From the NCBI GenBank assembly GCA_964532425.1, contig CAZHIA010000009.1:1-62451 (forward strand): 62,451 nucleotides of DNA, given 5' to 3'. Positions 6,817 through 42,209 of this stretch are shown here, piece after piece. Below the pieces are notes generated by a model that saw nothing but the letters and a program-made list of their open reading frames with translations, ran no database searches and had not been told where the DNA came from. Both the position numbers and the translations under genes were made by a program. The stretch's first letter is position 1. Each line of letters begins with the position of its first letter. Origin of the DNA: an uncultured Candidatus Saccharibacteria bacterium (GTDB taxonomy: Bacteria > Patescibacteriota > Doudnabacteria > UBA920).

Positions 6817-6930
6817 TCTACAAAACTACCCTGCGGAAATATCCAAATCTACGGAAAACTACGGATTCTCTAAGTGAGGATCCGTAGTTTTCCGTAGATT
6901 TGTAGTTTTGCGTAGCTCCGTAGTTATCTG
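6817..6930. repeat. word-repeat inverted repeat, family ctacgga/ccgtag, with a perfect 22-bp stem
   Basis: aaatctacggaaaactacggat (6845-6866) is the exact reverse complement of atccgtagttttccgtagattt (6880-6901). 13-nt loop, with imperfect word extensions on both sides. Confidence 0.9.
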
Positions 6931-11038: not shown

Positions 11039-11140
11039 TCTACAAATCTACGGATGTATCCTAATCTACAAATACCTACAAATACCCATTGGTGTTATTT
11101 GTAGGTATTTGTAGATTTGTGCCATCTGTAGATTAGTAGT
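11039..11140. repeat. word-repeat inverted repeat, family ctacaaat, with a perfect 22-bp stem
   Basis: aatctacaaatacctacaaata (11063-11084) is the exact reverse complement of tatttgtaggtatttgtagatt (11096-11117). 11-nt loop. Starts 4 nt from the yraN ATG. Confidence 0.9.
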
Positions 11141-12387: not shown

Positions 12388-12477
12388 TAGTTCTCTCGCG
12401 GATACGCGAACCTCGCGGAAACCAGATCACTTTAGCCAGCGGCATCCGCGAAATCCGCGTATCCGCGAGATAACTAT
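12388..12477. repeat. word-repeat inverted repeat, family atccgcg (copy 1)
   Basis: tagttctctcgcggatacgcgaacctcgcgg .. tccgcgaaatccgcgtatccgcgagataactat. Its termini are shared with the 13281-13372 copy. Confidence 0.85.
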
Positions 12478-20072: not shown

Positions 20073-20477
20073 ATGCTCTTTCCAGGCTGGTTGAGAAAAA
20101 AACAGCCGGCAGCTCCGGTGCCCCCGCCTCCACCCCCAAAAACACGCGAGCAACTCGTAGCGGAAAAGCTCCGGATCACCGATGCCGGGCTGGCAAATTT
20201 TAAAAGCGGACCCGCCCGCCACAATACCATCATCATAAGGGACAAGGACGGGAAAGAATCACCTCACCCCGGCCAAGTCACCTACTGCAATAATCAGCTC
20301 CGCATCGGGATAACCAACACCGAAATCATGCTCTGGTGTGATGTGTGCGAAGACATCCTGTGCCGTCAGAAAAAAGTCACTCCCCTCAAGGAACCGGAAG
20401 TAGGCAACTCGGGGTTTCCGCAGATGTCCGACAATGATTTTTTGAAAATTCTCAAAATCAAACCGGAGCAGTTGTAG
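20073..20477 (+). CDS. hypothetical protein (orphan, poly-Pro N-terminus)
   Basis: Strong SD and promoter. 134 aa with PPPPPP and CxxC (CDVCEDILC). No family recognised. Confidence 0.6.
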   Translation: MLFPGWLRKKQPAAPVPPPPPPKTREQLVAEKLRITDAGLANFKSGPARHNTIIIRDKDGKESPHPGQVTYCNNQLRIGITNTEIMLWCDVCEDILCRQKKVTPLKEPEVGNSGFPQMSDNDFLKILKIKPEQL

Positions 20478-20870: not shown

Positions 20871-23800
20871 CTACTCAGTCGCGATAGAACTAATAGCCTC
20901 TGGCTCAGTAACTACCTCGGGCGTCGGTTCAACCACAGGAAGGGTGGAGGTTGCCTGTTCGTTTGGAACAGCGTCCACTGGCTGGACAGGTTCCGTCGTT
21001 TGAGAATCTACTACCGCAGGCTGCTCTTGTGTCACAACGACCAAATCGGCTTGAGCACCACCTTCTTGTCCGTTACCGGTTTGTCCAGATTGTGGTGGAA
21101 TAATCTGGGGCTGAATCAGAATTATATTCTGAGTCGAGCCATCGGAAACTGTCAGTTGCGCTTCAGGAGAAGCAAACGAATGCCAGTCAAAGACTACATC
21201 TGTCGTAGTTGCCTGAGGTAAAGATAAAGTAAACCCACTGGCATCTTTACTTTGGATAAATGCCAGAACAGCTGCCCCTTCCGGTGAAAAAGTTACCACG
21301 GGTTGGTATTTATATGCCTGCTTAAACGTGACCCTCACCGAAGTCTGCCCGGCTAAAATTTTCGCTTCCCCCACGCTGTCTCCTGAAAAATTAGAAGAAA
21401 CATATACCGACAAAGAGGATGCAGTGGCATTACCGATAATCGAGCCTTGAAGGTCGGCAATCTTCTGGTTTAAGGCTTGAATGCCAAGCAGCGCTACGCC
21501 GGAAGGATCAATGGTGGAGATGGATGTGGAGGCATGCTCCCCTCCCAGGCCGAATGCCGCATAGAAGTCCTGGGCAGTCGGACCGATGTGGGTAGTGGTA
21601 GCCGAGTCTGCCTTGTAGTTCCACTGGGAGATGGGAAGACTGGCAATCTTCTGCAATATTTCAGCCGGAGTGACGGTAGCAAAGTTCTCCTTCAAATTGA
21701 CATCTGAGGCATTGCTCCAGACTGAGCCGTCACTATAGGCTCCGCCGGAGAGGGTCAGGAGGTGGGAAGCATCTGTTGTGCCAATGCCGACATGTCCATC
21801 CCAGCGTAATCGCACACTTTCGCTCCCATTAGTATAAAAGCTTATAGTTCCGTCCGATGGTGAAAACATCCCGGTATCATAGCCGCCATCCTGGTAAAAA
21901 GAGTACCCTCCTCCGCTAGTCCCGGTTGATTCGGCTACCATAATCTTTCCGCCAATTTTAGCATCTCCCTGTACGTATAGATTATTCGCTCCGGGATCGC
22001 TCGGCGTGGTCGTACCTACAGACAAACTGCCATTAAACCAGCTATACACATATGTATTCGTTTCATCATAACCAGTTGTAAGGGTAAGGCCACGTAATGA
22101 GTCTTCCGGACGACGCGCAACATTACCATCCTTCGAAACAAAAAGGGCGAGATTTGAAGAAAAGCGCCAATTGTATTCTGCGCCAATCCAAGAACGGCTT
22201 TGGTTTATATTACTAGCATTTATATTGGAGAATTGGATCGCCGTATTAGCCGCGTAACGATCCTCTCCCACCTGAAGAAATGACCAGCCTCCGTTCTGCC
22301 CATAAAAAGAAGCAAACGGGGTACTACTTGGAGAGTTGGAATTACCGAACCCTGAAGTATAAAATACTGCGTTCGTTCCTCCTCCCACATTGAGAATAGA
22401 AGCCATTGAAGTGGTACCTATGCTTACAATATCTTGGGTATATGATTGGCCATTGAGCAACTCCTGCCAATTCCCTGCCAGGGAACCATTGACGAACAAC
22501 CGGTTCACGTACAGATCTCCAAAAGAATTGTTAGATGTTCCCAAAGATGAACCAGCAGCGTAAGTTGAGCCGTCTTCTGTAACGAGCCTTGCAAGTTTCA
22601 GCACTTTAGACCCCAGATCTCCATAAACTATGCGAGGATAACCGTCCAAGCCTAGTGCCATTGAGTTCAACCCTCCCCCGGTAAAGGAAATTGAAGCTAA
22701 AGATTTTTCGGAACAATTTGCGGTTTTACATTGAATGTAGAACACCCCTGCGCCCTTCGGCCAGTTCCAAGCACCGTAAGAAATCCTCGGGAGGTTATTA
22801 TTATCCATTATGACTGTGACCTGAGATGCATTTGCCACTGAAGCTAACGTAGTTGTGTTCGATAGACTACAAGCTGCATTAGTACACTGGATGAATTTAA
22901 TAGCCGAACTATCATCAGTGTACACAATCCTGCCATAGCCATCAGTCCCTAATACCATATCGATATAGTATCCCCTGGCAACCGTACCTACCAACTGGTC
23001 ACTCCGCACGGTACAAGAGGCATCCTGGCATACCACATAGTGAATCTGATTAGGAGTTGTATCTTGATTTATATAGACGAAGCGGGCAGTATTATCTGAA
23101 CCCACAGCAATCGCCGATTGTTCCAGCCAGCTAGTAGAAGAAGTGGCAACTGTTGTGGTAGCTACGGAAGTACAATCGGCGTTCAGGCATGCGGCAAATT
23201 TTAAATAATCCTGGCTGGGATCTGGGTGCTGGTATTGGGGGTAATCCTCGTACACAATTCTCCCCAAACCGTCTTTATCTACTGTCCCACTGACATTCCA
23301 AAAATACCCATGGGCTGGATGATCGACAAGAGTATCCGTCAAAGCATTGCAGTCCTGGTCCAAACAACGGACAAAATGGAGTTCGTTCGGAGTATTATAA
23401 TTTATATAAACTATTCTCGGCAGGCCGTCGGATGCGATCGATAAAGTTGGTGCATCTGACCCGTTCGAATTCGTACTAATGACTTTATCATTCTTCGTTT
23501 GGCAATCCAGGTCCAAACAGTGGACATAGTGCAGCTCATAGCTGCTCCAATCCATGTAAACGAAGCGGACGTACCCATCAGTACCTACAGCAACAAATTT
23601 TTGGTTATCATTGTAGATATACGAGCTGCCGGCCGCAGCAGCTATCTGGGTTATTACAGTCTGCCGCAAAGAGCCGGAAACCCCGGGAAGGATAGAACCA
23701 GCGGTGGCAGTAGAGACGGTCAGACTGGAAACAGTAGTGGTTGCCAAACTCGTCTGTCCGGCCGTTAAATTCCCCTGAATATTCACCGACTCTGAAAATC

Positions 23801-24323
23801 TCCCTGTCTTGGAGGTAAGGGTGTCTCCGGTGAGATTAGTGCCAGTAATATCAGTTGCTCCGAGCGAGGTGGTAATCTGGGAATTATTTAAGGCAGCAGG
23901 GTTAGACGGCAGGAGAATCGGTGAATACCCCGCCGGACCTTGCGGACCGGACGACCCGATGTCCCCTTTGTCGCCTTTCTCGCCCTTGAGTACCCCAGAT
24001 GCCAACAGAGTTTCAATTTTCTGATCTATAAGCTTGCTGAAAAATGCCGTATCCAGAGAAGGAACCGGTTTAACAGCAAGCGGAACGGTAGCAGCGGCTG
24101 GAGCTGCTGCTTTTCTGGCTGCTGAGGCCAGAACTTCGACAGCTTTTCCACCTGGTACCGGCATAGTCGGGCTAGATACCTTAGTGCGGGAGGCTGCGGC
24201 TGGAGTAGGAGCCACCAGACTGTCGATATAGCTGTTGGAGGCAAACGTAAAGCTGACCACTGCCGCCATACCAAAACAAGCAGCAAGGACCGCCAACAAA
24301 AGGCGATGCTTAAGCAGGTTCAT
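20871..24323 (-). CDS. large surface protein: collagen-like segment, 6-7 Cys-pair repeats, tail-fibre intramolecular chaperone (S74-like) domain, Pro/Thr/Glu tail
   Basis: N-terminal hydrophobic anchor. GEKGDKGDIGSSGPQGPAG at aa 114-132. Repeated ..DG.PRIVY..C.D.DC.. modules at aa ~236-580. SDVNLKENF..LPISQWNYK..HIGPTAQDFYAAF at aa 873-960. Confidence 0.85.
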   Translation of the reverse strand: MNLLKHRLLLAVLAACFGMAAVVSFTFASNSYIDSLVAPTPAAASRTKVSSPTMPVPGGKAVEVLASAARKAAAPAAATVPLAVKPVPSLDTAFFSKLIDQKIETLLASGVLKGEKGDKGDIGSSGPQGPAGYSPILLPSNPAALNNSQITTSLGATDITGTNLTGDTLTSKTGRFSESVNIQGNLTAGQTSLATTTVSSLTVSTATAGSILPGVSGSLRQTVITQIAAAAGSSYIYNDNQKFVAVGTDGYVRFVYMDWSSYELHYVHCLDLDCQTKNDKVISTNSNGSDAPTLSIASDGLPRIVYINYNTPNELHFVRCLDQDCNALTDTLVDHPAHGYFWNVSGTVDKDGLGRIVYEDYPQYQHPDPSQDYLKFAACLNADCTSVATTTVATSSTSWLEQSAIAVGSDNTARFVYINQDTTPNQIHYVVCQDASCTVRSDQLVGTVARGYYIDMVLGTDGYGRIVYTDDSSAIKFIQCTNAACSLSNTTTLASVANASQVTVIMDNNNLPRISYGAWNWPKGAGVFYIQCKTANCSEKSLASISFTGGGLNSMALGLDGYPRIVYGDLGSKVLKLARLVTEDGSTYAAGSSLGTSNNSFGDLYVNRLFVNGSLAGNWQELLNGQSYTQDIVSIGTTSMASILNVGGGTNAVFYTSGFGNSNSPSSTPFASFYGQNGGWSFLQVGEDRYAANTAIQFSNINASNINQSRSWIGAEYNWRFSSNLALFVSKDGNVARRPEDSLRGLTLTTGYDETNTYVYSWFNGSLSVGTTTPSDPGANNLYVQGDAKIGGKIMVAESTGTSGGGYSFYQDGGYDTGMFSPSDGTISFYTNGSESVRLRWDGHVGIGTTDASHLLTLSGGAYSDGSVWSNASDVNLKENFATVTPAEILQKIASLPISQWNYKADSATTTHIGPTAQDFYAAFGLGGEHASTSISTIDPSGVALLGIQALNQKIADLQGSIIGNATASSLSVYVSSNFSGDSVGEAKILAGQTSVRVTFKQAYKYQPVVTFSPEGAAVLAFIQSKDASGFTLSLPQATTTDVVFDWHSFASPEAQLTVSDGSTQNIILIQPQIIPPQSGQTGNGQEGGAQADLVVVTQEQPAVVDSQTTEPVQPVDAVPNEQATSTLPVVEPTPEVVTEPEAISSIATE

Positions 24324-30687: not shown

Positions 30688-32586
30688 TTATGCTGTCACC
30701 GGCTCGGCTGGCGGCATTTCGGTGGCTGGGATCTCACCTTGGAACTCAGGAGCCCGCTTCTTTTCTGCTGGAATAATGTCTTTGACAATCTCGTCGAATT
30801 GTTCCTGTTCAAGAGTCTCTTCCTTTACCAAGCGCGTGGCGATGATATCCAGATACGAGCGGTATTTATTCAAGGCTTCGGTCGCCCGATCAAAACCTTC
30901 GCGCATCAAGCGTGAGACTTCATCGTCGATCTTCTTAGCAACTTCTTCGCTATAGTTGCGCTGTTCGCTGATTTCGCGGCCCAGGAAGACCATTTCATGA
31001 TGATCTCCCAATGAGATCGGCCCTAATTCTTCGCTCATGCCGTAGTTAGTCACCAGGCGGCGGGCCATATTGGTCGCAACCTTCAAATCATTGGAAGCGC
31101 CGGTAGTCAATTCTTTAAAGACCAGTTTTTCCGCTGCATAACCGCCGAGGAGCGCGGCAATTTCATCGAGGAAGCTCTGGCGGGTGTGCAGGTGTTTGTC
31201 TTCAACCGGCAGCTTCATGGTATAACCGGCTGCACGGCCGCGGGAGATGACCGAGACTTTGTGCACCGGGTCGGAGTACGGCAACACCGTGCCGACCAGA
31301 GCATGGCCGCCTTCGTGGTAAGCAGTGACTTCCTTTTCCTTCGGCGTCAAAATATGGCTCTTGCGTTGGGGTCCCAGCATGACCTTTTCAATGGATTCGC
31401 GCAATTCTTCATTGCCAATTTCGCGCTTATTGTTGCGGGCGGTCAAGATGGCAGCCTCGTTGATGAGGTTTGCCAAATCAGCTCCGGAAAAGCCCGGGGT
31501 ACGTTCCGCGATCTTGCGCATGTTGACTTCTTTGGCCAATGGTTTGTTCTTGGCATGGACTTTCAAAATTTCTTCCCGGTCTTTAATATCGGGTAAGTCC
31601 AGCACGACCTGACGGTCAAAACGTCCCGGGCGAAGCAAGGCGGGATCAAGTACATCCGGGCGGTTAGTTGCAGCCATGACAATCACATTCGTATCGGTCT
31701 CGAAACCGTCCATCTCCACCAGAATCTGGTTCAAAGTCTGTTCTCGTTCATCATGCCCACCGCCTAGACCTGCTCCGCGCTGGCGGCCGACCGCATCAAT
31801 TTCATCAATGAATACAATGCACGGGGCATTGCGCTTGGCCTTTTTGAACAGGTCGCGGACGCGGGCCGCACCCACACCAACAAACATTTCGACGAATTCG
31901 GAACCCGAGATATGGAAGAACGGTACATTCGCTTCACCAGCTACGGCACGGGACAACAAAGTCTTACCTACGCCCGGACTGCCGAGCAGTAAAACGCCTT
32001 TGGGAATCTTAGCGCCAAGCTGCAGGAATTTTTGCGGATAACGGAGGAACTCGACAATCTCTTTCAGTTCTTCTTTGGCTTCTTTGGCGCCGGCCACGTC
32101 GGCAAAGCGCACGCGATTGCGGCGCTCATCGGATAATTTAACCGAGCTCTGACCAAAGGACAAAGCCCTGTTGTTCGTCCCCTGCACCTGGCGCATGAGG
32201 AAGTAGATGAAAAACGCGATCAGGACAAACGGAATAAGTATCGGCCAAATGGCGCTCAGTAACATAGAGGCAAGGCCGCCGGACTTATTCTCGATGCGGA
32301 GTGCGCGGATCTTGTCGGATGAGATACCGCTATCCTTCAGTACCTGCGTGATATTCTCATTATTCCCCAGCTGCGCCTGCTGCTTGGTGCTATCACCTTT
32401 AATATCAGCCACTACCGTATTTCCGGATATGGTCACGCTATTGACCTTGCCCTGGTCAACCAGGTTGACAATGTCCGAGATGGCCACGTCTTTGACCTTG
32501 GTGTTGTCAGAGAAGGCATAAAATAATCCGGTGATCAAAAGGAACCCGAGAAGTATATAGATGATGTTCTTTACGATTTTACCCAT
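30688..32586 (-). CDS. ftsH: ATP-dependent zinc metalloprotease FtsH
   Basis: Walker [11 protein letters not shown], Walker [13 protein letters not shown] region and zinc motif HEGGHAL. Confidence 0.97.
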
Positions 32587-32867: not shown

Positions 32868-32954
32868 TGGTGGGGACGGAGGGACTTGAACCCTCAATCT
32901 CTTGCGAGAACCAGCTCCTAAGGCTGGCGCGTATGCCAATTCCGCCACATCCCC
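32868..32954 (-). tRNA. tRNA-Leu (anticodon TAG), long variable arm, CCA encoded
   Basis: Reverse complement is GGGGATG..CCAGC-CTTAGGA-GCTGG..GAGGGTTCAAGTCCCTC..CCCCACCA. Confidence 0.9.
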
Positions 32955-33048
32955 AAATAGGTAACACCCTACGCTTCGTTTGCTAAATTTCCGCCTAAAC
33001 AGCCATATTTAATAAGAACCTTTCATTATTATACCAACTAAGCTATCT

Positions 33049-33077
33049 CTTGACAAGTAGGCCATTTTTTGCTATAA
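33049..33077 (+). promoter_or_regulatory. perfect consensus sigma70 promoter for the GC-rich operon
   Basis: TTGACA (33049-33054), 17 nt, TATAAT (33072-33077). Confidence 0.75.
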
Positions 33078-33085
33078 TATAGGGT

Positions 33086-33219
33086 ATTTTGGCTGGAAAA
33101 TTGCTTGAAAACCTAAGGATTCTGTAGTGCAGGGCCGTGGCCTGCCTATCATGGTCGTAGGGGCGGGTCGCGACCCGCCCCTACACATGAGCAAATCTTT
33201 AAGCAATTTTCTCGCCAAA
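33086..33219. repeat. nested inverted repeat in the 5' leader, containing a 28-nt perfect GC palindrome
   Basis: The outer arms ttttggctggaaaattgcttgaaaa (33086-33110) and tctttaagcaattttctcgccaaaa (33195-33219) are 21/25 complementary. Inner elements are gcagg..cctgc (33128-33144) and gtaggggcgggtcgcgacccgcccctac (33156-33183). Confidence 0.8.
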
Positions 33220-33301
33220 AGCTTACAAAAGCTTTGGCGGGCCAGACCTGATGAAGGCTGGATGGATAGCTCTTTTCAGCCCTAAAGGAGGGCAACAATT
33301 T

Positions 33302-34798
33302 ATGGCAAGCGATCAGAACACCCCGAGCGGTGAGGTTTTTGTTTTTCCAACCTTTCCGAAGGATCCCAAAACAGGTGAAAAACTTGGCAACCCCGCGAAC
33401 TTCAAGTTCAAGATTTTCTTGAGCGATGCCGAACTAAACGGCCGGCCATTGGCTGGAAAAGTTACGATCGGGGTGCGCAGCAGCGCATCACCTGACAAGA
33501 ACTCGTACGAACTGCTCCCCGTCGGGCTGCCAGCAGCCCCTGACCCCAATCAGCCGCACGTCATTGACGTGCCAAGCAGCGGGGTTTCAGAGGAAATCTG
33601 GCTTGATTTGAGCGACTGGTATGCTCTCGATCCCCCGTGCAACCAGCTTGTATTTGTGATGGACGGGAAGATCAAAAAGTTTGCCTGGTTTCCGGGAATC
33701 GATACACGGAATGAGCCGAAGTCACCGCGAACGCGGCAACAACAGACTCCGCCCGTTCAAACCTCGGCACCCGCTGCACCGGCACAACCGCCAGCGGCAA
33801 ATCCAGCTCCGCCAGTTAACCCGAATCCACAGGCTCCACCTCGTCCTGCCGGGGGACAACCTCCTCCGCAGATCAATCCGCCGCAACCGGCGCCGCCTCC
33901 GCAGCCCCCTCTCCCGCAGAACGCGGGAACAACCGGGCAGCAGACGCCCCGCCCGCGGCCAACCCAACCGGCTCAACCGGCACAGCCGGCAAGCGATGAT
34001 GACCAAAATCAGAATCGCCGCAACCCCGGCCAGCCCCAGCGCGACAACACGCAGGGCAACAACCGGCGCGGACAGCAACAATCGGATGACGGCGAAGATG
34101 ACGAGTTCGATGACGTCAAAATCGAGCTGACAGGTCTTACCGCCGTGGAAAAGAAAAAGGACGGTAAGCTTACCGGTTACGATGTGACTGCCACGGTCGC
34201 CACGACCCGCAAGTCCGGCAAGAAAGGCGGCAACCGCAGTATTGCGGCACAAGTGCCTTTCACCTTCTTTGTCGATGGCAAGGAAGAGCAGGGACTCAAA
34301 CTCCGCACTGACCGTACCGGCAGACAATCCCATACTTTTGAGGATGTCCCTCCGGGCGGACGCAGCAAGAGCGGCAAGTTCAAAGTCGAAGCGGTCATCA
34401 AAGGCCGCGCCACTGGCGATGATGACACCATCAACGTCCCGGCTCCGCCGGCGGAAGATAAGAAGAAGGACGAGAAGAAGCTTCCGGCGCTGCAGGTCGT
34501 TCAACCGAACTATCCCAACAGTCGCGGTGGGTTCCCGATCACGGTCAAGACCCACAAGGACAATAAGCCCGCTCAGAGCAAGTTTACGATTGCGGCCTCC
34601 GAAGAGATCGAGCTCAGAGAGGTCAGCAGCGGAACCGTACACAAAGGCTTCACCTTTGATCTGGAGACGAGCGACAGCGGCTGTGCTGCGTACATCTTGA
34701 GTTTTGATCCGGTGCAGGTGTCGATTACGTTTTTGACACCGGCCGGATTCACCACGGACGAACTGTTCTGCAAGCCGAACACCGGCAGGAGATTCTAA
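33302..34798 (+). CDS. hypothetical protein with a ~125-aa Pro/Gln-rich linker (gene 1 of the GC-rich operon)
   Basis: aaaggaggg SD 9 nt upstream of ATG 33302. N-terminal domain, PQ-rich aa ~138-262, acidic patch, then a beta-rich C-terminal half. No signal peptide and no family recognised. Confidence 0.7.
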   Translation: MASDQNTPSGEVFVFPTFPKDPKTGEKLGNPANFKFKIFLSDAELNGRPLAGKVTIGVRSSASPDKNSYELLPVGLPAAPDPNQPHVIDVPSSGVSEEIWLDLSDWYALDPPCNQLVFVMDGKIKKFAWFPGIDTRNEPKSPRTRQQQTPPVQTSAPAAPAQPPAANPAPPVNPNPQAPPRPAGGQPPPQINPPQPAPPPQPPLPQNAGTTGQQTPRPRPTQPAQPAQPASDDDQNQNRRNPGQPQRDNTQGNNRRGQQQSDDGEDDEFDDVKIELTGLTAVEKKKDGKLTGYDVTATVATTRKSGKKGGNRSIAAQVPFTFFVDGKEEQGLKLRTDRTGRQSHTFEDVPPGGRSKSGKFKVEAVIKGRATGDDDTINVPAPPAEDKKKDEKKLPALQVVQPNYPNSRGGFPITVKTHKDNKPAQSKFTIAASEEIELREVSSGTVHKGFTFDLETSDSGCAAYILSFDPVQVSITFLTPAGFTTDELFCKPNTGRRF

Positions 34799-34799
34799 A

Positions 34800-35588
34800 A
34801 TGGACAACCCTATTCCTGGGCTGACAGGCCCTGCCAATCCGGCTGCTCCTACAGCGGCGCCTGGATGGCTTCACAAAGCCTGGAAATTGGTCACTGGCGG
34901 CGCTGAGGTTGCCGAGTCTGTAGCCACAATCGGCTACTTCACCGGCATCTTCAAACGCGACCAGCACGGCAAACCCAAACTCAATGGCGACCTGGTTCGC
35001 GCGCAAGCGCCCCACTTTGCCAAAGACCGCCACGCGGAAGCGCAGTTCTCCATTTTAATGGAAGAACTGAGTCCCGGCGAACAGACAGCTCTTGACCAGT
35101 ACTTTCTTCCGAGCCTCAGTGAGGACCAGCAGGCTGACTTCAAACTCAGCACGCTGGAAATGACCTGGGGTGAGACGGACGAGCAGAAGCAAAAAGGACG
35201 AGAGGCGGCAATCAAGTTCTTGAAACGGATTGCAGCCATTTCGGACAACATGCTGCGCATCGAGGTGGCGGATGCCCGAGATTTCATCAAGGGAGACCCC
35301 ACCGAGTACGGTTGGTACATGGTTCGCCAATTCGCACGGCGGGCTGCGGCCTGGTTCCGCGATCCAGCCGGTTTTCCGGCGCGGTATGCGCAATTCACCA
35401 ACTGGATGGAAAACGAAGGAACGGCGCGGATCATTGAGTTCCGCAACCGTCTCGGCGTAACCGTTCAACCAGTGCCCGGTGCGGCAGTTCCGCTGCTGCC
35501 CGTGGCACCTCCGGGAAGATTTAGACGAGTAGCCAACGCTGTTGATAATCCGTTCTCACTGTCGCGCGCCGCGCGACGCTTCAAATAG
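34800..35588 (+). CDS. hypothetical protein (gene 2 of the GC-rich operon)
   Basis: The ATG lies 2 nt after the gene 1 stop, with aggaga SD. 262 aa, soluble. No family recognised. Confidence 0.65.
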   Translation: MDNPIPGLTGPANPAAPTAAPGWLHKAWKLVTGGAEVAESVATIGYFTGIFKRDQHGKPKLNGDLVRAQAPHFAKDRHAEAQFSILMEELSPGEQTALDQYFLPSLSEDQQADFKLSTLEMTWGETDEQKQKGREAAIKFLKRIAAISDNMLRIEVADARDFIKGDPTEYGWYMVRQFARRAAAWFRDPAGFPARYAQFTNWMENEGTARIIEFRNRLGVTVQPVPGAAVPLLPVAPPGRFRRVANAVDNPFSLSRAARRFK

Positions 35589-35605
35589 ATAGGAGATTAC
35601 AGATT

Positions 35606-37390
35606 ATGGGAGAATTTCTTTCTCAACTATTTGGTGCGCTCGACGACGTGCGCGCCCTTACCAAGGCGGCTGTGAGCCGCCTTCTCACGCTGTTCGTCAC
35701 GTTCATCATCGTGAATATCGTGATGGCACGATTCATGCAGCAATGGCTGAATCCCTGGCACTTGGTGCTTGCCGCGGTCATGGTATTCCTGATTTGGCGA
35801 GTCGTGTGGGTTGGCCTGAACCGCGTCACTGACGCGGCCCTCGTGGCTGCGTACCGAAACAACGAACCAGCAAAGGAAGCCATTGGCTATGTCAAACAGG
35901 CCATGGGCATCGTCCTGCTGGCAGGTTTCGGGTTCTGGGTTCTGCCCACCTACCGTTCGTTCACGCTGACGTTGGCTCTCCTGTTGCTTGTCTTCCTGCT
36001 CTTTCTGAGCAGCCCCGACAAGTGGAACTGGTTGACCATAAAGCGTGTCTCCGTAGTCGGCATCATGTTCGTGATCAGTGGGCTCATGTTATTCCCGCTG
36101 CTCAAGCACTACGGACCGCGCATTATGTACCACACTGGCAAAGCCGCTACCACGTCGTACTATATCACCTCCCGGGACACCGTTGAAAAATGGTGTTTCG
36201 ACTGTGTGATTAAGGACGGCAAGTTGGAGGGCGGCAAAAACTTCAGCCAACTCAAGGACGTGAAGGCCGGCGACTGGTACATTCCCGTTGATCAGGAAAG
36301 TCCTGCTCCCATCGACCTCAACGGCGTCAGTATGATGCCGCTCTTCAAAGCCTACGACAGCAAACTGCCGGTCAAGGGCTTTGACATGGATCCCAAACGG
36401 ATCGCTTTCGTTCCCGTCGGACACCTTCGGGAAGAGAGCGATTTAGCGGGAACAGGCTCAAGCGACAGCTGGTGGGAACGCAACAAACCCGCCGCAATCC
36501 GCTGGGCAGTTGTGTTCGGGCTCATCTTCCTCGGTTTCCTGATCATCCCGCCGGTATGGCGGTACTTGTCAGGACAGACCAGGGAAACCAGACCCGCGCA
36601 TGACGGTCTCGTAGGACCTGGCGTGCATCATGCAGGTCCCTACGGCGCTGATGCGCACGCACACGCCGCTCCGGCTCCTCATGCCGCAGCTCATGCAGCT
36701 GCTCATGAAGAGCACGGCGGACATGGTGCTGGATTGCCCCCAGCGGTCTGGATTACCCTGATCGTTGTACTCGGCATAGTCGCATTATTGTTCACCCAGA
36801 GATGGTGGAACAATATCGGCACCGGACCGGTCTACGCCAACAACGCACCGTCCGCAACAACTCCGGTCCAGCAGGTGAGTTCCCAAGGATCTGGCGAGCA
36901 ACGAGGTGCCGCGCTTCCGGTTCCGGGAGTAGGCGCCTCACAGCGCTGGAATCCTGAAACCCAGCAATGGGAAACGCCGGATTTCACCACCCTGTCCGAT
37001 TTTCGCGGACGATGGAAGGTCGTGGTTCCCGCTAACACCGAGGTGTTTACCGACATCCAGGTCAAGCGAGCGCAGACCATTACATTCATTTCCCGCAGTG
37101 GTCGGGTTAAAAATAATCCCAAAGAGGATTACACAAACCCGCCGCAGGGAACGTACCCGATCGACATCATCTCGCCGGCAAACCCGCCCTATACGCTTCC
37201 GGAAGCACATACCGGAGCGTTACTGTGCCGCTTCTCAGGCAACCAGCAATGGTTCGACGCTGGCGGCCGGGATGGGAATACTTACACGGTCGAGGTCGAA
37301 GAGGGCCAGATCGTGTTCGCGGCCAACACCCGCGTCGGCGAACGAAACTTCGCCACCGGCCAGTTCGAGGTAGTATTTGAAATTCAGTAG
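35606..37390 (+). CDS. polytopic membrane protein with a His/Ala-rich segment and a C-terminal PA-IL/LecA-like beta domain (gene 3)
   Basis: taggaga SD. About 5 N-terminal TM helices plus 2 more. HHAGPYGADAHAHAAPAPHAAAHAAAHEEHGGHG at aa 341-376. The C-terminus GALLCRFSG..WFDAGG..GQIVFAAN..GQFEVVFEI resembles the LecA fold pattern. Confidence 0.7.
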   Translation: MGEFLSQLFGALDDVRALTKAAVSRLLTLFVTFIIVNIVMARFMQQWLNPWHLVLAAVMVFLIWRVVWVGLNRVTDAALVAAYRNNEPAKEAIGYVKQAMGIVLLAGFGFWVLPTYRSFTLTLALLLLVFLLFLSSPDKWNWLTIKRVSVVGIMFVISGLMLFPLLKHYGPRIMYHTGKAATTSYYITSRDTVEKWCFDCVIKDGKLEGGKNFSQLKDVKAGDWYIPVDQESPAPIDLNGVSMMPLFKAYDSKLPVKGFDMDPKRIAFVPVGHLREESDLAGTGSSDSWWERNKPAAIRWAVVFGLIFLGFLIIPPVWRYLSGQTRETRPAHDGLVGPGVHHAGPYGADAHAHAAPAPHAAAHAAAHEEHGGHGAGLPPAVWITLIVVLGIVALLFTQRWWNNIGTGPVYANNAPSATTPVQQVSSQGSGEQRGAALPVPGVGASQRWNPETQQWETPDFTTLSDFRGRWKVVVPANTEVFTDIQVKRAQTITFISRSGRVKNNPKEDYTNPPQGTYPIDIISPANPPYTLPEAHTGALLCRFSGNQQWFDAGGRDGNTYTVEVEEGQIVFAANTRVGERNFATGQFEVVFEIQ

Positions 37391-37425: not shown

Positions 37426-37461
37426 GCCCCGTTCCGATGAACAATCGGAACGGGGCTTTTT
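37426..37461 (+). terminator. Rho-independent terminator of the GC-rich operon
   Basis: gccccgttccgat gaaca atcggaacggggc followed by ttttt. The 56545-56574 terminator has the same 12-nt arms. Confidence 0.8.
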
Positions 37462-37636
37462 AATACTCTTTAATCAAAACCGGCTTCATAGCCGGTTATT
37501 TTAATAGCGAATTATCCGCCGTAGTCCCGACTCAATGTCGGGACGAAGGAGGATATGTATTGATGAACCAAATGCAAAGGTCACCTTCGCGCTGCGCGAA
37601 GGTGACCTTTGCTGTGGAAAGAAGCACCCCCAAATC

Positions 37637-37677: not shown

Positions 37678-38463
37678 TTATCTATTCAGTGTCCCGGCGA
37701 CTACTGCCACGATCGTATAAGAAAGGATGACCACAACCAGTCCGATAACGGCGTTGACGAGCGTGTTCTTGCCTTTCTCTGCCTGCTCGCCATTACCAGC
37801 CGAGGTAATGTACCAGAAGCCGCCTAAAATAATGAACACAACAGCAATAGCTCCGGCAAACTGCAATAACATTTTGATAATCTTTTGGAGCAGCGTCGGC
37901 AAGGTATCGGCATTGTTCCAGCCAGTGTTGGTTTGGGGAATACAGATGCCATTCTTAAAATCATACCCCGCACCGCAATTTCCTGAACCACCACCCGAAC
38001 CAGAACCCCCAGTACCGCCCGTACCGCCAGTTCCACCAGAACCTCCGGTCCCACCGGTTCCACCAGCACCTCCAGCTCCAGTATCTCCTCCCGTTCCGCC
38101 GGTGCCAGTTCCACCCGTACCAGTCCCCGATCCGCCCCCTGGATTATTGGACATGCATTCGTTGGTAATAGGATTCATGGTATACCCAGAATTGCATTCG
38201 CACGCTCCGGTAGAATTATTACAGCTTTGATTGGAACCGCATGTCTTGCCCGCGCACGGGTTAGTCTGCGTGCCGCCTTGGTCGTATACGCAGGTGCCGC
38301 TGCCCGGATCACATGCCAATCCTCCGGCAGTGTCGCAATCGGAATTTTGGGAGCAGGATCCGCCAATACCTACCGTTCCCGCAAACGCTAAGGGGGACGC
38401 GACTGCCAGCAGACTGACTGCAACCATTCCAGCTATTAAAAATTTTGGGAATAGTTTATTCAT
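37678..38463 (-). CDS. TrbC/VirB2-like 'T4SS pilin' paralog 1 with a Cys-rich head and Gly/Thr/Ser linker
   Basis: Signal peptide, 12-Cys EGF-like region, (GGT/GGS)n linker. C-terminal module FWYITSAGNGEQAEKGKNTLVNAVIGLVVVIL lies between two hydrophobic helices. Confidence 0.8.
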   Translation of the reverse strand: MNKLFPKFLIAGMVAVSLLAVASPLAFAGTVGIGGSCSQNSDCDTAGGLACDPGSGTCVYDQGGTQTNPCAGKTCGSNQSCNNSTGACECNSGYTMNPITNECMSNNPGGGSGTGTGGTGTGGTGGDTGAGGAGGTGGTGGSGGTGGTGGTGGSGSGGGSGNCGAGYDFKNGICIPQTNTGWNNADTLPTLLQKIIKMLLQFAGAIAVVFIILGGFWYITSAGNGEQAEKGKNTLVNAVIGLVVVILSYTIVAVVAGTLNR

Positions 38464-38466
38464 ACC

Positions 38467-38853
38467 TCAAATTTGCCCGTTACCGACTAAATTGCTGACC
38501 ACCGTAACCAGCACATAGGACAAGGCGATAACCACAATACCAATTAGGGCATTGACCACGGTGTTCTTGCCTTTTTCCGCGGACTCGGCACTGCCGGCTG
38601 AGGTGATATACATGTAACCGCCATAGACCAGGAAAATAATGGCAATCGCTCCGGTAAACATGAGCATGAGCCGTATCACGTTCGTGATCAATTCCATAAC
38701 CGATTGGGAATTCCCCAACCGTCCGGAGTTACCAAAAATGCTCCTGAGTCCGCTTCCGCTCAAACCTTCGCTGACCGCATCGGCAAACGCCACCAGCGGT
38801 ACCGAAACAGCCGCACCGGCAGCAACAAGGCCTTTGATGAATTTGTTTTTCAT
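38467..38853 (-). CDS. TrbC/VirB2-like 'T4SS pilin' paralog 2 (minimal form)
   Basis: Signal peptide plus YMYITSAGSAESAEKGKNTVVNALIGIVVIAL module. 128 aa. Confidence 0.85.
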   Translation of the reverse strand: MKNKFIKGLVAAGAAVSVPLVAFADAVSEGLSGSGLRSIFGNSGRLGNSQSVMELITNVIRLMLMFTGAIAIIFLVYGGYMYITSAGSAESAEKGKNTVVNALIGIVVIALSYVLVTVVSNLVGNGQI

Positions 38854-38992
38854 ATTATTTCATTATGTTTTTGAACTGGTCTTTTGGTGCAACTGGGATT
38901 CCACAAAAAGATCGGTCCAAAAATTAGGAAGTTCCTGCCCCGCTTCCAGCAGTATAAGCTGCCGGCGTGCGGGGCAGGAATCAAATTTATGG

Positions 38993-39403
38993 TTACGGGG
39001 TTGAAGTCCCAGTACCAGCATTGCTGACCAGGTTGGAAACCACGCTGACGATAACGTATGAAAGCACGATAATAACGATACCGATCAAAGCGTTAACTGC
39101 AGTGTTCTTGCCTTTTTCCGCGGACTCCGCGTTACCGGCAGAAGTGATGTACTGGAAACCGCCGATAATAAGGAACAAAACCGCGATACCGAAGGCGATA
39201 CCGAGCATCCAGCGAATCACGGTGGTGATAAGCCCGTTGACGCTCGTACCGGCGTTACAGTTCACGCCGCCCAACTGGTTGCAGTCCACACCGGAAGACA
39301 GCGCAAAAGCGCTCGCCACCGGCACTACCGTTATGGCAATAACGGCAATAATCTCTGCAATTTTGAGGAAATCGATTTTTCTTATTTGTTTCAAGCTGTT
39401 CAC
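38993..39403 (-). CDS. TrbC/VirB2-like 'T4SS pilin' paralog 3 (minimal form)
   Basis: FQYITSAGNAESAEKGKNTAVNALIGIVIIVL module. GTG start at 39403, or TTG at 39394 behind gagagggg. Confidence 0.8.
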   Translation of the reverse strand: MNSLKQIRKIDFLKIAEIIAVIAITVVPVASAFALSSGVDCNQLGGVNCNAGTSVNGLITTVIRWMLGIAFGIAVLFLIIGGFQYITSAGNAESAEKGKNTAVNALIGIVIIVLSYVIVSVVSNLVSNAGTGTSTP

Positions 39404-39490
39404 CCCCTCTCGGGTTTCAAAGATATGAATATCCTTGTTTGCTAATAATAGTATACTATAAAAACCGCAAAAGTTAAAACGAATTTCCCT

Positions 39491-40231
39491 CTAGTTATGT
39501 CCTACCGAATAACCGCAAACTTTAGCGACTACTTTTTGATCCGTGGCCCCGGGCACCCCATATTCCGCCAGATATGAATTCACGCCCGTCGTCTGGAACG
39601 GGGCATACCCGATAGGTGTATCATTCGGAGTTACTACCTCCAAGACCGGCGCGGGGTACCCCTTTGCCGTACAGTAATCTACTATGGCCTGTTGTTTGTC
39701 AGGAGTCGTACCAACATACACGCGCAATCTCCCGGTGCTCGTTAAGAACTGCGGGTTGTTGATGGCGTTGTTCATTTGGTCTTGCAGTGCCTGCATGCGC
39801 TGCTCATTAGTTGTTCCTCCCCCGCTACCGCCCGCGCCAGAGCCAGAGCCGCCCGATGAATTAGTAAGGGTGTTGGTCACCAGGCGGACAATGAGCGATG
39901 ACAGTAAAATCACCGTAAGCCCAATGACTGCATTGACCAGGGTATTCTTTCCTTTTTCCACACTCTCGCCGTTGCCGGCCGAGGTCAAATACCGGAAACC
40001 GCCCAAAATTATGAACAGCACCGCCACACCGCCAGCCAGCATGAGCAGCAAGTTAATGGCTTTAAGGAGAATGCCGTTGGCCGTGCAATATTCTGCCGGC
40101 ACCCAGTCAAACAAGCCACCAAAAGACGACACCCAGCTCGGACACCCGGAGCTTGCGGCCTGGACGAGAGATGGAACCGTGATGGCCGTCAGGGCAGCGA
40201 CCATGATAAATATTTTTGTTTTTTGCGACAT
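39491..40231 (-). CDS. TrbC/VirB2-like 'T4SS pilin' paralog 4 with a C-terminal extension domain
   Basis: FRYLTSAGNGESVEKGKNTLVNAVIGLTVILL module in the N-terminal half, then a Gly/Ser linker and a ~100-aa C-terminal domain. Confidence 0.8.
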   Translation of the reverse strand: MSQKTKIFIMVAALTAITVPSLVQAASSGCPSWVSSFGGLFDWVPAEYCTANGILLKAINLLLMLAGGVAVLFIILGGFRYLTSAGNGESVEKGKNTLVNAVIGLTVILLSSLIVRLVTNTLTNSSGGSGSGAGGSGGGTTNEQRMQALQDQMNNAINNPQFLTSTGRLRVYVGTTPDKQQAIVDYCTAKGYPAPVLEVVTPNDTPIGYAPFQTTGVNSYLAEYGVPGATDQKVVAKVCGYSVGHN

Positions 40232-40416
40232 ATATCTAAGCTCGTTTATATTGTTTTTGACTCAAGCTTACTTCAATACCTTTCCGTCTCGCTTCGCGAT
40301 CCACCTTCCCTACAAGGGAAGGATTAACTGCAGCCTTGCAGCCGGCTCCCCTCTCTTTGTCTAAAGAGAGGGGTACACCCAGGCACCATCGGATGGTGTC
40401 TGGGTAAAGGGTGAGT

Positions 40417-41637
40417 TTAGAAGAATGATGCCGGATTCGGAATATCAGCACCGAGCAGGTTTTGGATGATGGCAATGATGGCAAAGGAAAGCAGGGCGAT
40501 CACTAAACCCATGACAGCCCAAATAATGGTACTTTTAGCTTTTCCATACGCCTCAGAATTTCCCTGGGACAAAACCATCTGGAACCCGCCGACAATGATC
40601 ATGGCCACGGAGAGTGCCCCGAGTACGCCCATCATCATCTTTAGGATGCGCGTGAATACCTGAAACAGATTACCAGAAGCTGAACCGAGCGGATTGATAA
40701 AAGATACCGTGGGATTTCCAGGAGTACCCCCGGTATTCGGATTGCCCGGGGTTCCACCAGTGTTCGGATTGCCAGGAGTCCCTGTACCAGGATTTCCGGA
40801 TGTACCACCCAAATTATTATCCCCGGTCAATGTTGCCGTTGCTTCGGCAATCTTCATACTTGTCCCCGCTTGCCACAGACTAACCGTGATATTATTCGTA
40901 CCTGCTTTGAAACCTCCGGACGAAGTCACGGTGGTGTCCAGCCATTGATCGCTTTGCATTTCCGCGCGCGATTTGGTAAATGTACCAAGCGTCTGTCCGT
41001 TCGCTTCGAATTTCAGATAAAAACTTTGTACCCCGGCATACTGCGAGCTATTCAGATCGCCCTGGTCAATATGGAATAAGATCTGTAATGGGTCATTCGC
41101 TTTGAATGACGATTGGCTTTGCGGTTTAAAATAGACACTCACCTGCGCACCGCTGCCTCCAACCGCGCCGGTTACTGCTACATTCCACGCGCTGCTGCGA
41201 GTTTGTTCGCTTCCCTGCCATACGCTGCTATAGAATTCAAAGACATTCGGGGTCGGCAAATCGGAACGGTCGATCGTGCTAATATTGACCGAAAAAGTTA
41301 CAACTGCCATGCTTTGCCAGTTTCCGTTGGAATCCTGCTGTGACGAAAACTGCATGCTTTTACTCTCCAATTGTTTGATTCCGGAAGCCATTTTTGACTT
41401 ATATCCAATGCTTACGGAGGCACTGGATGAACAATCGCTCATGTTACCGGAACGGGTCACTCGCGACGTAAATGTTAGGGTCTGGCCAGTAGCAGCCGAA
41501 GTGGCATTGCCGCTGAAATTGTCATCATAATTGCATGCTGCCTGGGCGACAAATGGTACAGTTGCGGCAAAGACCAGGCCGAGCAGATATATGCTTGCTG
41601 TAAAAAGACTGAGCATGCGGACGAATAAACGTTGCAT
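40417..41637 (-). CDS. TrbC/VirB2-like 'T4SS pilin' paralog 5 with a large N-terminal beta-rich head
   Basis: Signal peptide, ~270-aa head, (GNPNTGGTP)n repeats, then FQMVLSQGNSEAYGKAKSTIIWAVMGLVIALL module. Confidence 0.8.
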   Translation of the reverse strand: MQRLFVRMLSLFTASIYLLGLVFAATVPFVAQAACNYDDNFSGNATSAATGQTLTFTSRVTRSGNMSDCSSSASVSIGYKSKMASGIKQLESKSMQFSSQQDSNGNWQSMAVVTFSVNISTIDRSDLPTPNVFEFYSSVWQGSEQTRSSAWNVAVTGAVGGSGAQVSVYFKPQSQSSFKANDPLQILFHIDQGDLNSSQYAGVQSFYLKFEANGQTLGTFTKSRAEMQSDQWLDTTVTSSGGFKAGTNNITVSLWQAGTSMKIAEATATLTGDNNLGGTSGNPGTGTPGNPNTGGTPGNPNTGGTPGNPTVSFINPLGSASGNLFQVFTRILKMMMGVLGALSVAMIIVGGFQMVLSQGNSEAYGKAKSTIIWAVMGLVIALLSFAIIAIIQNLLGADIPNPASFF

Positions 41638-41664
41638 AGTGGAATAGTTAATAATCGCTGTCAG

Positions 41665-42102
41665 TTAACACCCCGGTCCCGACGGGTTAACATAGCAGCG
41701 TGGATTGGTCAAATTTACATGGGCCTGGAACACATTATTAACCAGAGTATTCACGATAGCAAAAGCAAGCAAGACGATTATGAAACCGATAATGGCATTA
41801 GTCATGCCGGTTTTGGCCTTGCCATACGCTTCGCCATTTCCGGCAGAGAGGGTCATATTCACAGCACTCACTACCATCCAAAAGACCGCATAGACGCCGG
41901 ACATGGCCAGCAGAAATGATATCAGCTTAGCCGCCAGAGTAAACATATCCTCGACGGAGCACGGATGCTCGCCATCCCCGCCGCACGGAACCAAACCGGC
42001 AGCGGAAGCCGCAAGCGGGATAAATGCCAGCACCGTACAAACAATTGACGCTATGATCTTATTTTTTGATTTCAACATGGGCAATTTCTTTGCCTTAAGC
42101 AT
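41665..42102 (-). CDS. TrbC/VirB2-like 'T4SS pilin' paralog 6
   Basis: Start at MLKAKK (42102), alternative 42078. Signal peptide and NMTLSAGNGEAYGKAKTGMTNAIIGFIIVLL module. Confidence 0.75.
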   Translation of the reverse strand: MLKAKKLPMLKSKNKIIASIVCTVLAFIPLAASAAGLVPCGGDGEHPCSVEDMFTLAAKLISFLLAMSGVYAVFWMVVSAVNMTLSAGNGEAYGKAKTGMTNAIIGFIIVLLAFAIVNTLVNNVFQAHVNLTNPRCYVNPSGPGC

Positions 42103-42180
42103 ACCATAACTTCGAACAAACACCAAATGCAACATAATGATAGAAAATATAAAAATATAAAAATTAACACAACTAAAACC

Positions 42181-42209
42181 CACCAAAACACCCCGACTTG
42201 TCGGGGTGT
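42181..42209 (-). terminator. Rho-independent terminator after the solute-binding protein gene
   Basis: acaccccgac / gtcggggtgt stem. On the minus strand it is followed by tttggtg. Confidence 0.75.

Follow-up and report, generated by a model that had tools for sequence, protein, structure and literature searches.

What does a compact, GC-rich trio of genes do between a tRNA gene and an array of pilin-like genes in an uncultured patescibacterium, and did it come from elsewhere? The DNA analysed here, which we call the window, is the whole stretch of 62,451 nt from position 1 to 62,451 of contig CAZHIA010000009.1 (assembly GCA_964532425.1). Within it, a sequence-only reading had singled out a three-gene operon, whose genes we name g1, g2 and g3, as a horizontally acquired or fast-evolving envelope or host-interaction module, possibly linked to the adjacent pilin-like array. 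We lean towards a resident, rapidly diverging envelope-protein cassette of Doudnabacteria-like Patescibacteria, equipped with its own promoter and leader and tied to the pilin array. The cassette family to which the operon belongs is uncharacterised and, to date, known almost exclusively from Patescibacteria-like sequences and from metagenome sequences without assignment.

The locus is organised as a sigma-70 promoter, a folded leader, g1, g2 and g3 (498, 262 and 594 amino acids) and a terminator, which together form one transcription unit with the following parts:

33047-33086, + strand: family-specific promoter, CTC-TTGACAAGT-N-ATTTTTTG-C-TATAAT-AT.GGT
33085-33301, + strand: structured 5' leader of about 217 nt (g1 ATG at 33302), fold z = -4.6 against shuffled sequence
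33286-33291, + strand: Shine-Dalgarno (SD) sequence of g1, AGGAGG
33302-34798, + strand: g1, 498 amino acids
34787-34792, + strand: SD sequence of g2, AGGAGA
34800-35588, + strand: g2, 262 amino acids
35591-35596, + strand: SD sequence of g3, AGGAGA
35606-37390, + strand: g3, 594 amino acids
37426-37461, + strand: intrinsic terminator, a 13-bp stem (37426-37456) with 9 GC pairs, then TTTTT

The -35 box lies at 33050-33055 and the extended -10 box, with its TG extension, at 33071-33078; all 12 consensus positions of TTGACA-17-TATAAT are matched, as had been claimed, and transcription probably starts at about 33085. The earlier description of a structured leader of about 215 nt, of a clear SD sequence before each of the three genes and of a strong terminator after them agrees with these features. 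Its intergenic gaps of 2 and 17 nt were right for the second, between g2 and g3, and wrong for the first, which is 1 nt. The SD sequences stand 8-10 nt from their ATG codons. Comparable sequences occur almost nowhere among the approximately 48 other starts of open reading frames (ORFs) in the window, and SD-led translation hence distinguishes the trio. The long antisense ORF at 33722-34837 (371 amino acids) does exist, and was rejected as a real gene given its lower score on host codon usage (0.087 per codon, versus 0.216 for the sense frame of g1) and the finding of protein homologues for the sense frames only.

Two side observations concern translation starts. The housekeeping genes of the window are nearly all without a recognisable SD sequence; the cassette genes of the window and of its relatives have strong ones. 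The sole other window gene with a perfect AGGAGG is at 20073-20477 (+ strand, 134 amino acids, no Pfam family) and adjoins a Peptidase_S74 protein described below.

One thread running through the relatives of this operon is non-coding. One promoter, part of its spacer included, is common to all cassette types (TTGACAAGT..GCCATTTT.TG.TATAAT). It is followed by a leader in which CUUGUGGUGGGCAAAACCNNGUAAA, a variable insert (as a rule, a GC hairpin with a run of U), CACCAC and UUUACNNGGUUUUCC.. succeed one another, the last of these pairing back to the leader start to form a 26-bp stem, P1. Across 18 non-redundant leaders P1 is 90.8% paired, versus 41-54% when slid by 1-3 columns; five of its pairs covary, and the observed covariation score was reached by 0 of 500 shuffles. 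The fold z-score of this rod domain ranges from -6.4 to -8.3 in relatives. BoxA-like elements with at most one mismatch to GYTCTTTAANA, a gamma-proteobacterial consensus (PMC5725501), stand 10-45 nt before the start codon in 13 of the 18 leaders, and each of the 13 is equalled by at most 9 of 500 shuffles; at the genome-wide scale the relaxed BoxA pattern is uninformative, as these AT-rich genomes contain it too often. Searches of Rfam with the leaders of four relatives (L004, L011, L028 and L042) returned only sub-threshold, hairpin-type matches to unrelated families. Three further loci (L175, L176 and L177), reached independently via the lectin protein, carry the same leader in another upstream context, with no tRNA-Leu. 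An 18-mer leader pattern gave 90 matches in metagenomes, most of them without the rest of the motif, and about 16 were kept after a check of the extended pattern and inspection by eye of the promoter and the complementary strand. From sequence comparison, the promoter and leader of the cassettes appear orthologous across species at the same site. Conserved, structured and absent from Rfam, the leader is the most unexpected result of this work.

In the window itself, a profile built from the promoter and 5' leader of 17 relatives has a sole match, at 33047-33086 (E = 2.2e-5). The leader that follows contains three elements:

33087-33220, + strand: 5' rod domain, found by repeat search, fold z = -7.1 (33085-33225)
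33214-33239, + strand: hairpin GCCAAAAGCTT-ACAA-AAGCTTTGGC, part of the minimum-free-energy fold, with a tandem-repeat (TRF) row at 33216-33234
33269-33279, + strand: degenerate BoxA-like element GCTCTTTTCAG, 6 nt upstream of the g1 SD sequence

Here stem P1 joins 33087-33109 to 33198-33220 (23 nt, 87% complementary), pairing GGAAAA-UUGCUU-GAA with UUUAAGCAA-UUUUCU; relative to L086 and L042, both strands differ at its central pairs. Inside it lie hairpins at about 33128-33146 and, at 33157-33184, a perfect one of 14 bp. The motif GCCAAAA is common to the hairpin at 33214-33239 and the 3' strand of P1, which makes an alternative pairing possible. By position, the degenerate element matches the BoxA-like elements of the 13 relatives. 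Since the covariance model of P1 (R1) is dominated by the long stem, the homology of the window leader rests on promoter, position and architecture, by which it would be a diverged copy of the family leader. Rfam 15 gave no match at gathering score in the window and none at E <= 1 in the window leader.

Four intergenic, near-perfect hairpins elsewhere in the window (12395-12469, 6843-6903, 11066-11114 and 37574-37612) score about 20 bits with R1 on both strands; they are probably bidirectional terminators, unusually long at 18-25 bp. At its edge the window holds the 5' end of a 16S rRNA gene (1-322, - strand), which has its own TTGACA promoter, near 915, and a leader of some 560 nt (323-920); this leader contains CCUUGACAGUUGAAUAG, loosely like the BoxA-like region of the cassette leaders.

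The site at which the cassette sits is as recognisable as its leader, thanks to three landmarks:

30688-32586, - strand: FtsH, beyond the tRNA gene
32868-32954, - strand: tRNA-Leu(UAG), identified by ARAGORN and Rfam, the conserved upstream landmark
37678-42186, - strand: six T4SS_pilin (PF18895) genes, convergent with the cassette, Pfam E 1.8e-11 to 8.5e-7

The FtsH of the window is 75-86% identical to that of metagenome-assembled genomes labelled Doudnabacteria, Patescibacteria or, for some, Saccharibacteria. The order FtsH, tRNA-Leu(UAG), T4SS_pilin array, solute-binding protein is kept in about 47 of the 80 fetched loci, and about 55 related loci have tRNA-Leu(UAG) in the interval that separates FtsH from the cassette or pilins. 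Most relatives have only 170-1000 bp between the first pilin gene and FtsH, and no cassette. In a minority (L028, L007, L017, L042, L004, L011 and others) the gap is filled by 2-5 genes in the orientation of the trio, GC-richer than their hosts. Occupancy varies among close relatives: two relatives (L003 and L005) with FtsH 82-83% identical lack a cassette, L004 has one of the window's type and L028 one of another type.

The trio is not confined to the window, as a check of synteny showed. A metagenome contig (L086) encodes, in order, a 493-aa g1-like protein (4e-17), a 242-aa g2-like protein (2e-14) and a 389-aa g3-like protein (1.5e-30), with the same kind of leader upstream and convergent pilins downstream. 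Partial versions occur in L004 (g1- and g2-like genes and a shorter gene of the g3 family) and L011 (g1- and g2-like genes, after which the contig ends). Two Logan contigs carry the trio at 100% identity to the window and hence hold no information on polymorphism. The homologues are only 20-44% identical and detectable only with exhaustive HMMER or local profiles, in line with the fast evolution proposed from sequence alone. Word-indexed searches of 5.8 billion clusters returned only the query itself for g1, g2 and g3, a misleading result because an exhaustive HMMER search of g3 against 1.84 billion representatives later gave 16 relatives. Pfam, NCBIfam and PHROGs yielded nothing usable for the three proteins.

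Cassettes of different types were compared by all-versus-all profile alignment (hhalign) of their proteins. Links between types are weak, and seven of the nine best join equivalent positions (first with first, E = 1e-4; membrane with membrane, E = 5e-5; second with second; last with last), of which only the first-first and membrane-membrane links survive correction for 496 comparisons. This supports the view that the cassettes are versions of a single diverged operon plan, not unrelated gene sets. The common plan consists of a beta-sandwich protein, a helical protein, one or more polytopic membrane proteins and a single-pass protein with a predicted outward-facing domain; in g3 of the window the last two are fused.

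Some cassettes and site occupants deserve separate mention. One cassette type (L028 7568-8494, - strand; L133; L177 6990-7922) opens with a protein that has a cold-shock domain (CSD) at its N-terminus (Pfam 5e-9) and an unknown C-terminal part, so that an RNA-binding module lies inside a cassette preceded by a structured leader. At the tRNA-Leu/pilin site of L035 (9204-9620, - strand) and L012 (81-542, - strand) there is a single small gene whose product has a signal-peptide-like N-terminal hydrophobic segment. That of L035 has 62% GC in a 37% GC genome; that of L012 has its own consensus promoter and SD sequence, without the family leader.

The first cassette protein, g1, has a beta-rich N-terminal domain (residues 1-148), a Pro/Gln-rich linker (about 149-275) and a C-terminal beta-sandwich region (about 276-498). 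It has no signal peptide, transmembrane or other hydrophobic segment, and with 34 Pro and 21 Gln in the 137 residues from 149 to 285 it fits its previous description as two domains joined by a linker of about 125 residues. Its homologues are the first cassette genes of L086 (4e-17), L011, L004, L007 and L127; for L011, L004 and L007 the homology covers the C-terminal half. The family shares the signature 'TD..G.F..TF...P.GG', and single relatives show sub-threshold matches to SpaA (0.0036), CarboxypepD_reg (0.09) and Cna_B (0.13), none of which appears in g1 of the window. A match of g1 to GltJ (E = 1.7e-4; 20.8 bits against a 450-bit cutoff) falls in the Pro/Gln-rich linker region and was taken as low-complexity. 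Protein-alignment scans of viral and metagenome contigs with the family of the g1 C-terminal region gave no confirmed match. The second protein, g2, is without transmembrane segments, as its earlier description as soluble implied, and mostly helical as judged by eye. Its family comprises members in L145 (9e-19), L086 (2e-14), L011 (2e-11) and, by profile, L004; it has no Pfam or PDB match, and no relative was detected beyond this small family.

The third protein is the one that points to the envelope. Six segments of g3 exceed the hydropathy threshold; a seventh falls below it (Kyte-Doolittle value about 1.4, calculated by hand) and is clearly hydrophobic in homologues. By the positive-inside rule, the protein would have seven transmembrane segments, with its N-terminus inside and its C-terminus outside. 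Two domains are predicted to be extracytoplasmic:

36146-36454, + strand: middle domain of g3, a small CxxC-bearing beta domain, residues about 181-283
36908-37387, + strand: g3 C-terminal LecA/PA-IL-like beta-sandwich, residues about 435-594

The sequence-only view of g3 as polytopic with an extracytoplasmic-looking C-terminal domain is thus upheld, with six clear segments and a weaker one, and with one of its two putative outer domains lectin-like. Among the 16 relatives, stand-alone polytopic proteins such as P0005 (third gene of L086) align with residues 16-331 of g3, and 13 proteins, mostly 220-270 aa long with one N-terminal transmembrane segment, align with residues about 435-594. On this evidence g3 is a polytopic membrane protein fused to a single-pass lectin protein. 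All ten relatives that were looked up are metagenome singletons, nine of them unnamed or called 'hypothetical protein' and one, P0019, labelled as an SLT-domain protein.

The C-terminal domain was compared by sequence and by structure. As a single sequence it has no match in a PDB sequence search, and no Pfam match at E <= 0.1 (one of 14 relatives matches PF07828 at 0.0011). A 14-sequence profile of the domain matches a PDB PA-IL chain over its whole length (E = 3.1e-5) and PllA at 0.3. The AlphaFold2 model has a predicted local distance difference test (pLDDT) score of 90.3 and a predicted template modelling score of 0.86, and in a Foldseek search of the PDB its 11 best matches belong without exception to LecA/PA-IL, EclA-N or PllA (E 2.6e-5 to 7e-4; target-normalised TM 0.70-0.78; probability 1.00). 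As modelled, the LecA-type fold of this domain is solid. Among predicted viral structures (BFVD) it has no match. The expectation that profile searches would find no known family consequently stood for g1, g2 and the N-terminal part of g3, which belong to no curated family, and failed for the C-terminal domain of g3, a distant relative of PA-IL/LecA.

The middle domain is modelled at pLDDT 80-90, in an N-terminal model that is poor elsewhere, and is common to P0005, P0016 and P0019. It has no significant structural match, only very weak SH3b-type ones (E > 1). The protein P0019 joins it to an SLT lytic transglycosylase domain (Pfam 6e-6), a hint of a link with the cell wall. P0019 itself (NCBI MDP2989233.1) is labelled Kiritimatiellota and lies on a 1.2-kb contig; this taxonomic assignment is doubtful.

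How close is the tie to the pilins? Of the leader-bearing loci, 10 extend far enough downstream to tell, and in 9 of these T4SS_pilin genes directly follow the cassette in convergent orientation, which substantiates the suggested link to the adjacent array; in our best-supported reading, a resident, fast-diverging envelope module under its own promoter and leader, the two are tied functionally or at least structurally. Such proximity would also be expected if the cassette were an accessory part of the adjacent pilus, which resembles that of a type IV secretion system (T4SS): a membrane platform or wall-remodelling module, VirB6- or VirB1-like, that assembles or anchors the pilins. The recurrence of the convergent arrangement in two different upstream contexts would suit such a role, as would the polytopic N-terminal part of g3 with its large outward loop, the fusion of that loop domain to an SLT lytic transglycosylase in P0019 and its very weak SH3b-type matches. 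We nevertheless find it unlikely. For none of the three proteins does Pfam or NCBIfam return a VirB or Trb component, no T4SS ATPase is encoded in the otherwise housekeeping 62-kb window, and the cassette is transcribed convergently with the pilins instead of together with them. Moreover, about 40 of 47 pilin arrays in relatives are without a cassette with the family leader, and the cassette is therefore not essential for pili.

Within the first pilin gene (37678-38463, - strand), positions 37985-38124 hold tandem repeats of 9, 15 and 27 nt that encode a Gly/Thr/Ser-rich tract; they could be a site of length variation.

Whether the envelope cassette is resident or imported turns largely on its composition and surroundings. 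The trio has 57.1-58.3% GC against 49.6% for the window, so that the direction of the reported difference was right; its size, a gap of about 8 points, is smaller than the spot counts of 55-63% had implied. GC at third codon positions (GC3) is 0.63-0.67, versus a host mean of 0.57 (sd 0.05), and GC at second positions is raised as well, the proteins being rich in Pro, Ala and Gly. Codon log-odds of 0.16-0.22 place the trio at the low end of the host range (0.305 +/- 0.092, minimum 0.165). The trio is distinct in composition; its codon log-odds, still within the host range, favour a resident cassette over an imported one. Amino-acid composition was rejected as the sole cause of the GC excess, GC3 being raised too: at 11 of 11 loci the GC3 of the cassette exceeds that of its host, by 0.08-0.19, and it rises with host GC. 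An excess that recurs and tracks the host points to a property of the locus more than to a recent import, and fits long residence with a locus-specific bias. The cause of this bias could lie in codon use tied to expression, or in GC-biased repair if the site is a recombination hot spot.

Composition and SD usage unlike those of the host would also be explained by a small mobile or virus-derived island integrated next to tRNA-Leu, with GC content, SD sequences and promoter of its own, the diversity of cassettes then reflecting different elements at the same attachment site. The cassette does adjoin a tRNA gene and is present or absent among close relatives, the leader and cassette are found together in other chromosomal settings too (L161 and L175-L177), and about 4 kb upstream of one lectin relative (P0004) its contig encodes a Phage_integrase. 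Lambdoid phages, too, use BoxA-type leaders (PMC2724277). Against this, neither the window nor the 20-odd relatives examined have a gene for integrase, transposase, replication, capsid or packaging within the cassette or next to it, and the cassette is not flanked by a direct repeat of the tRNA end. No att repeat and no viral or plasmid hallmark were found in or beside the cassettes, and an island defined by an att site and integrase was rejected for want of repeats and recombinase. Viral collections were equally silent (nothing in a protein-alignment scan, nothing in BFVD, and two matches to the leader 18-mer without the extended pattern), there was no PHROG match, and PADLOC returned 0 families for g1, g2 and g3 at E <= 1. 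With GC3 tracking that of the host, as expected of long-resident DNA, we judge a mobile origin improbable.

A recent horizontal acquisition from a donor of higher GC content, in which the locus plays no particular part, would account for the GC of 57-58% against 49.6%, for SD sequences where host genes lack them and for codon log-odds at the low end of the host range, yet it is very hard to credit when different species share an orthologous promoter and leader at this site, the GC3 offset recurs at 11 of 11 loci and scales with host GC, and 5.8 billion clusters and 1.84 billion representatives hold no homologue outside a rare set of metagenome and Patescibacteria sequences, with the one exception of P0019 and its doubtful binning. 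The claim of horizontal acquisition is accordingly not supported as it was put: neither an integrase or att repeat nor viral or out-of-group homologues came to light, and the same promoter and leader occupy the same site across species. The other half of that proposal, an envelope or host-interaction module, fared better on the envelope side, with g3 polytopic and two of its domains probably exposed.

Several observations weigh against a resident envelope cassette that is tied to the pilins and driven by a family leader. L161 has a cassette without pilins, and most pilin arrays in relatives have no cassette. The BoxA-like element of the window has three mismatches to the gamma-proteobacterial consensus and is equalled by 138 of 500 shuffles; the window leader has neither the GUGGUG nor the CACCAC motif and is an outlier in the leader family; R1 scores any long hairpin, on both strands, and does not separate the window leader from these; and a clear BoxA was not found in the organism's own 16S leader. 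As for the proteins, g1 and g2, with no signal peptides or transmembrane segments, have no visible route to the envelope, and PDB sequence searches (with the g1 C-terminal region, g2 and the g1 and g2 family profiles) and Pfam gave no match for either. The seven-segment model of g3 hinges on one weakly hydrophobic helix at residues about 98-113. Finally, sugar binding by the lectin-like domain is not assured, as the Ca2+/galactose ligands of LecA, which we take to be Asp100, Thr104, Asn107 and Asn108, are not conserved. Where the lectin in the profile alignment has N-D-K-P-G-S-F-G-D-N-S-G, the family has N-C-l-a-g-E-r-h-n-A-s-G and the window N-T-R-V-G-E-R-N-F-A-T-G, with Asp100 replaced by Cys or Thr and Asn108 by Ala.

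If the cassette is read as a resident surface module, its parts suggest how it may work. The family promoter and the long rod-like leader RNA would drive 2-5 SD-led genes. The leader could act like an rRNA-type or phage-type leader, its long stem serving as an RNase III-type processing site or a stabilising one, and in most relatives the BoxA-like element next to the SD sequence might recruit Nus factors, so that transcription is kept running through the cassette or translation is gated. By analogy, the leader plausibly controls read-through, stability or translation. In the membrane, g3 would anchor its LecA/PA-IL-like beta-sandwich and the second small beta domain so that both lie outside. 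Judging from its modelled fold, the outward-facing LecA-like domain most likely acts by binding a ligand at the cell surface, and the displayed domain would bind a glycan or cell-wall ligand on another cell. The operon probably serves in recognising other cells or holding on to them; with the neighbouring pili, the module would help an epibiotic bacterium to recognise its host or attach to it. Arms-race selection, along with recombination between conserved flanks (the leader and the pilin region), would produce the turnover and the raised GC.

More tentatively, and with doubts that outweigh our confidence, we consider a wider proposal. In it, the promoter and the rod-and-BoxA leader would represent a new class of structured regulatory RNA that marks a swappable 'expression site' in Patescibacteria, at which entire surface-protein cassettes, with the leader as one flank and the pilin array as the other, are replaced by recombination, and the lectin, g1 and g2 would be parts of an undescribed host-recognition apparatus operating with T4SS-like pili.

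The rest of the window is housekeeping in character, with genes for SMC, FtsK, RecA, RNase Y, a Mg-chelatase-type ATPase and LspA. In this housekeeping region a 1150-aa protein with a Peptidase_S74 domain (E = 3.4e-11; 20871-24323, - strand) has the look of a fibre or spike protein. Peptidase_S74 is an intramolecular chaperone of endosialidase and tail-fibre proteins.

The locus is more interesting than 'three unknown genes', since it exposes an uncharacterised cassette family and a conserved leader. Host recognition and attachment by ultra-small Patescibacteria are largely unknown (PMC11623550), and a membrane-anchored LecA-like domain, which can be expressed for glycan arrays, offers a concrete handle on this question. 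The polymorphism of cassettes among close relatives, in presence as well as in type, can be correlated with host range. In metagenomes, where searches by protein turn up next to nothing, the conserved leader RNA provides a search key for the variable cassettes, and the family would be worth an Rfam entry of its own if it truly is a new class of regulatory RNA. Three 'ORFans' of word-indexed searches were moreover placed in families by synteny-guided and exhaustive profile searches.

Known systems resemble individual parts of the cassette. The C-terminal domain of g3 shares the beta-sandwich fold of LecA/PA-IL (PF07828; 1l7l, 4cp9, PllA 5odu, EclA-N 6ygq), and the profile alignment spans the domain, including the strand motifs GALL.R.G and ..G.F.V.I. 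LecA, however, is a small soluble tetramer, whereas the g3 domain is about 40 residues longer, is probably tethered to the membrane (by seven segments in g3, by one in most relatives) and has not kept the positions of Asp100, Asn107 and Asn108. The signature of the g1 family resembles the prealbumin-like, Cna-B or SpaA stalk domains of Gram-positive adhesins and pilins, to which the matches of relatives are sub-threshold; unlike these, g1 of the window has no signal peptide, sortase motif or isopeptide signature.

The BoxA/Nus leaders of rRNA operons, lambdoid nut sites and the suhB 5' untranslated region (PMC5725501) likewise combine a strong promoter with a long structured leader, and the element of the 13 cassette relatives stands close to the SD sequence, as in suhB. 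The cassette leaders differ in driving protein-coding envelope genes in Patescibacteria, and the window copy of the element is degenerate. To our knowledge, no BoxA leader described so far has anything equivalent to the conserved 5' rod and its motifs GUGGUGGG and CACCAC. For the locus as a whole, the closest likeness, offered strictly as an analogy, is to O-antigen and capsule clusters, hypervariable surface loci with a conserved antitermination leader (JUMPStart/ops, RfaH). They too occupy a fixed site between conserved flanks, have an atypical composition and a non-coding leader before variable genes, and show presence or absence and type replacement among close relatives. Those clusters encode sugar-pathway enzymes and have a GC content below that of the host, whereas the cassette encodes proteins of unknown fold together with a lectin-like domain and has a GC content above it.

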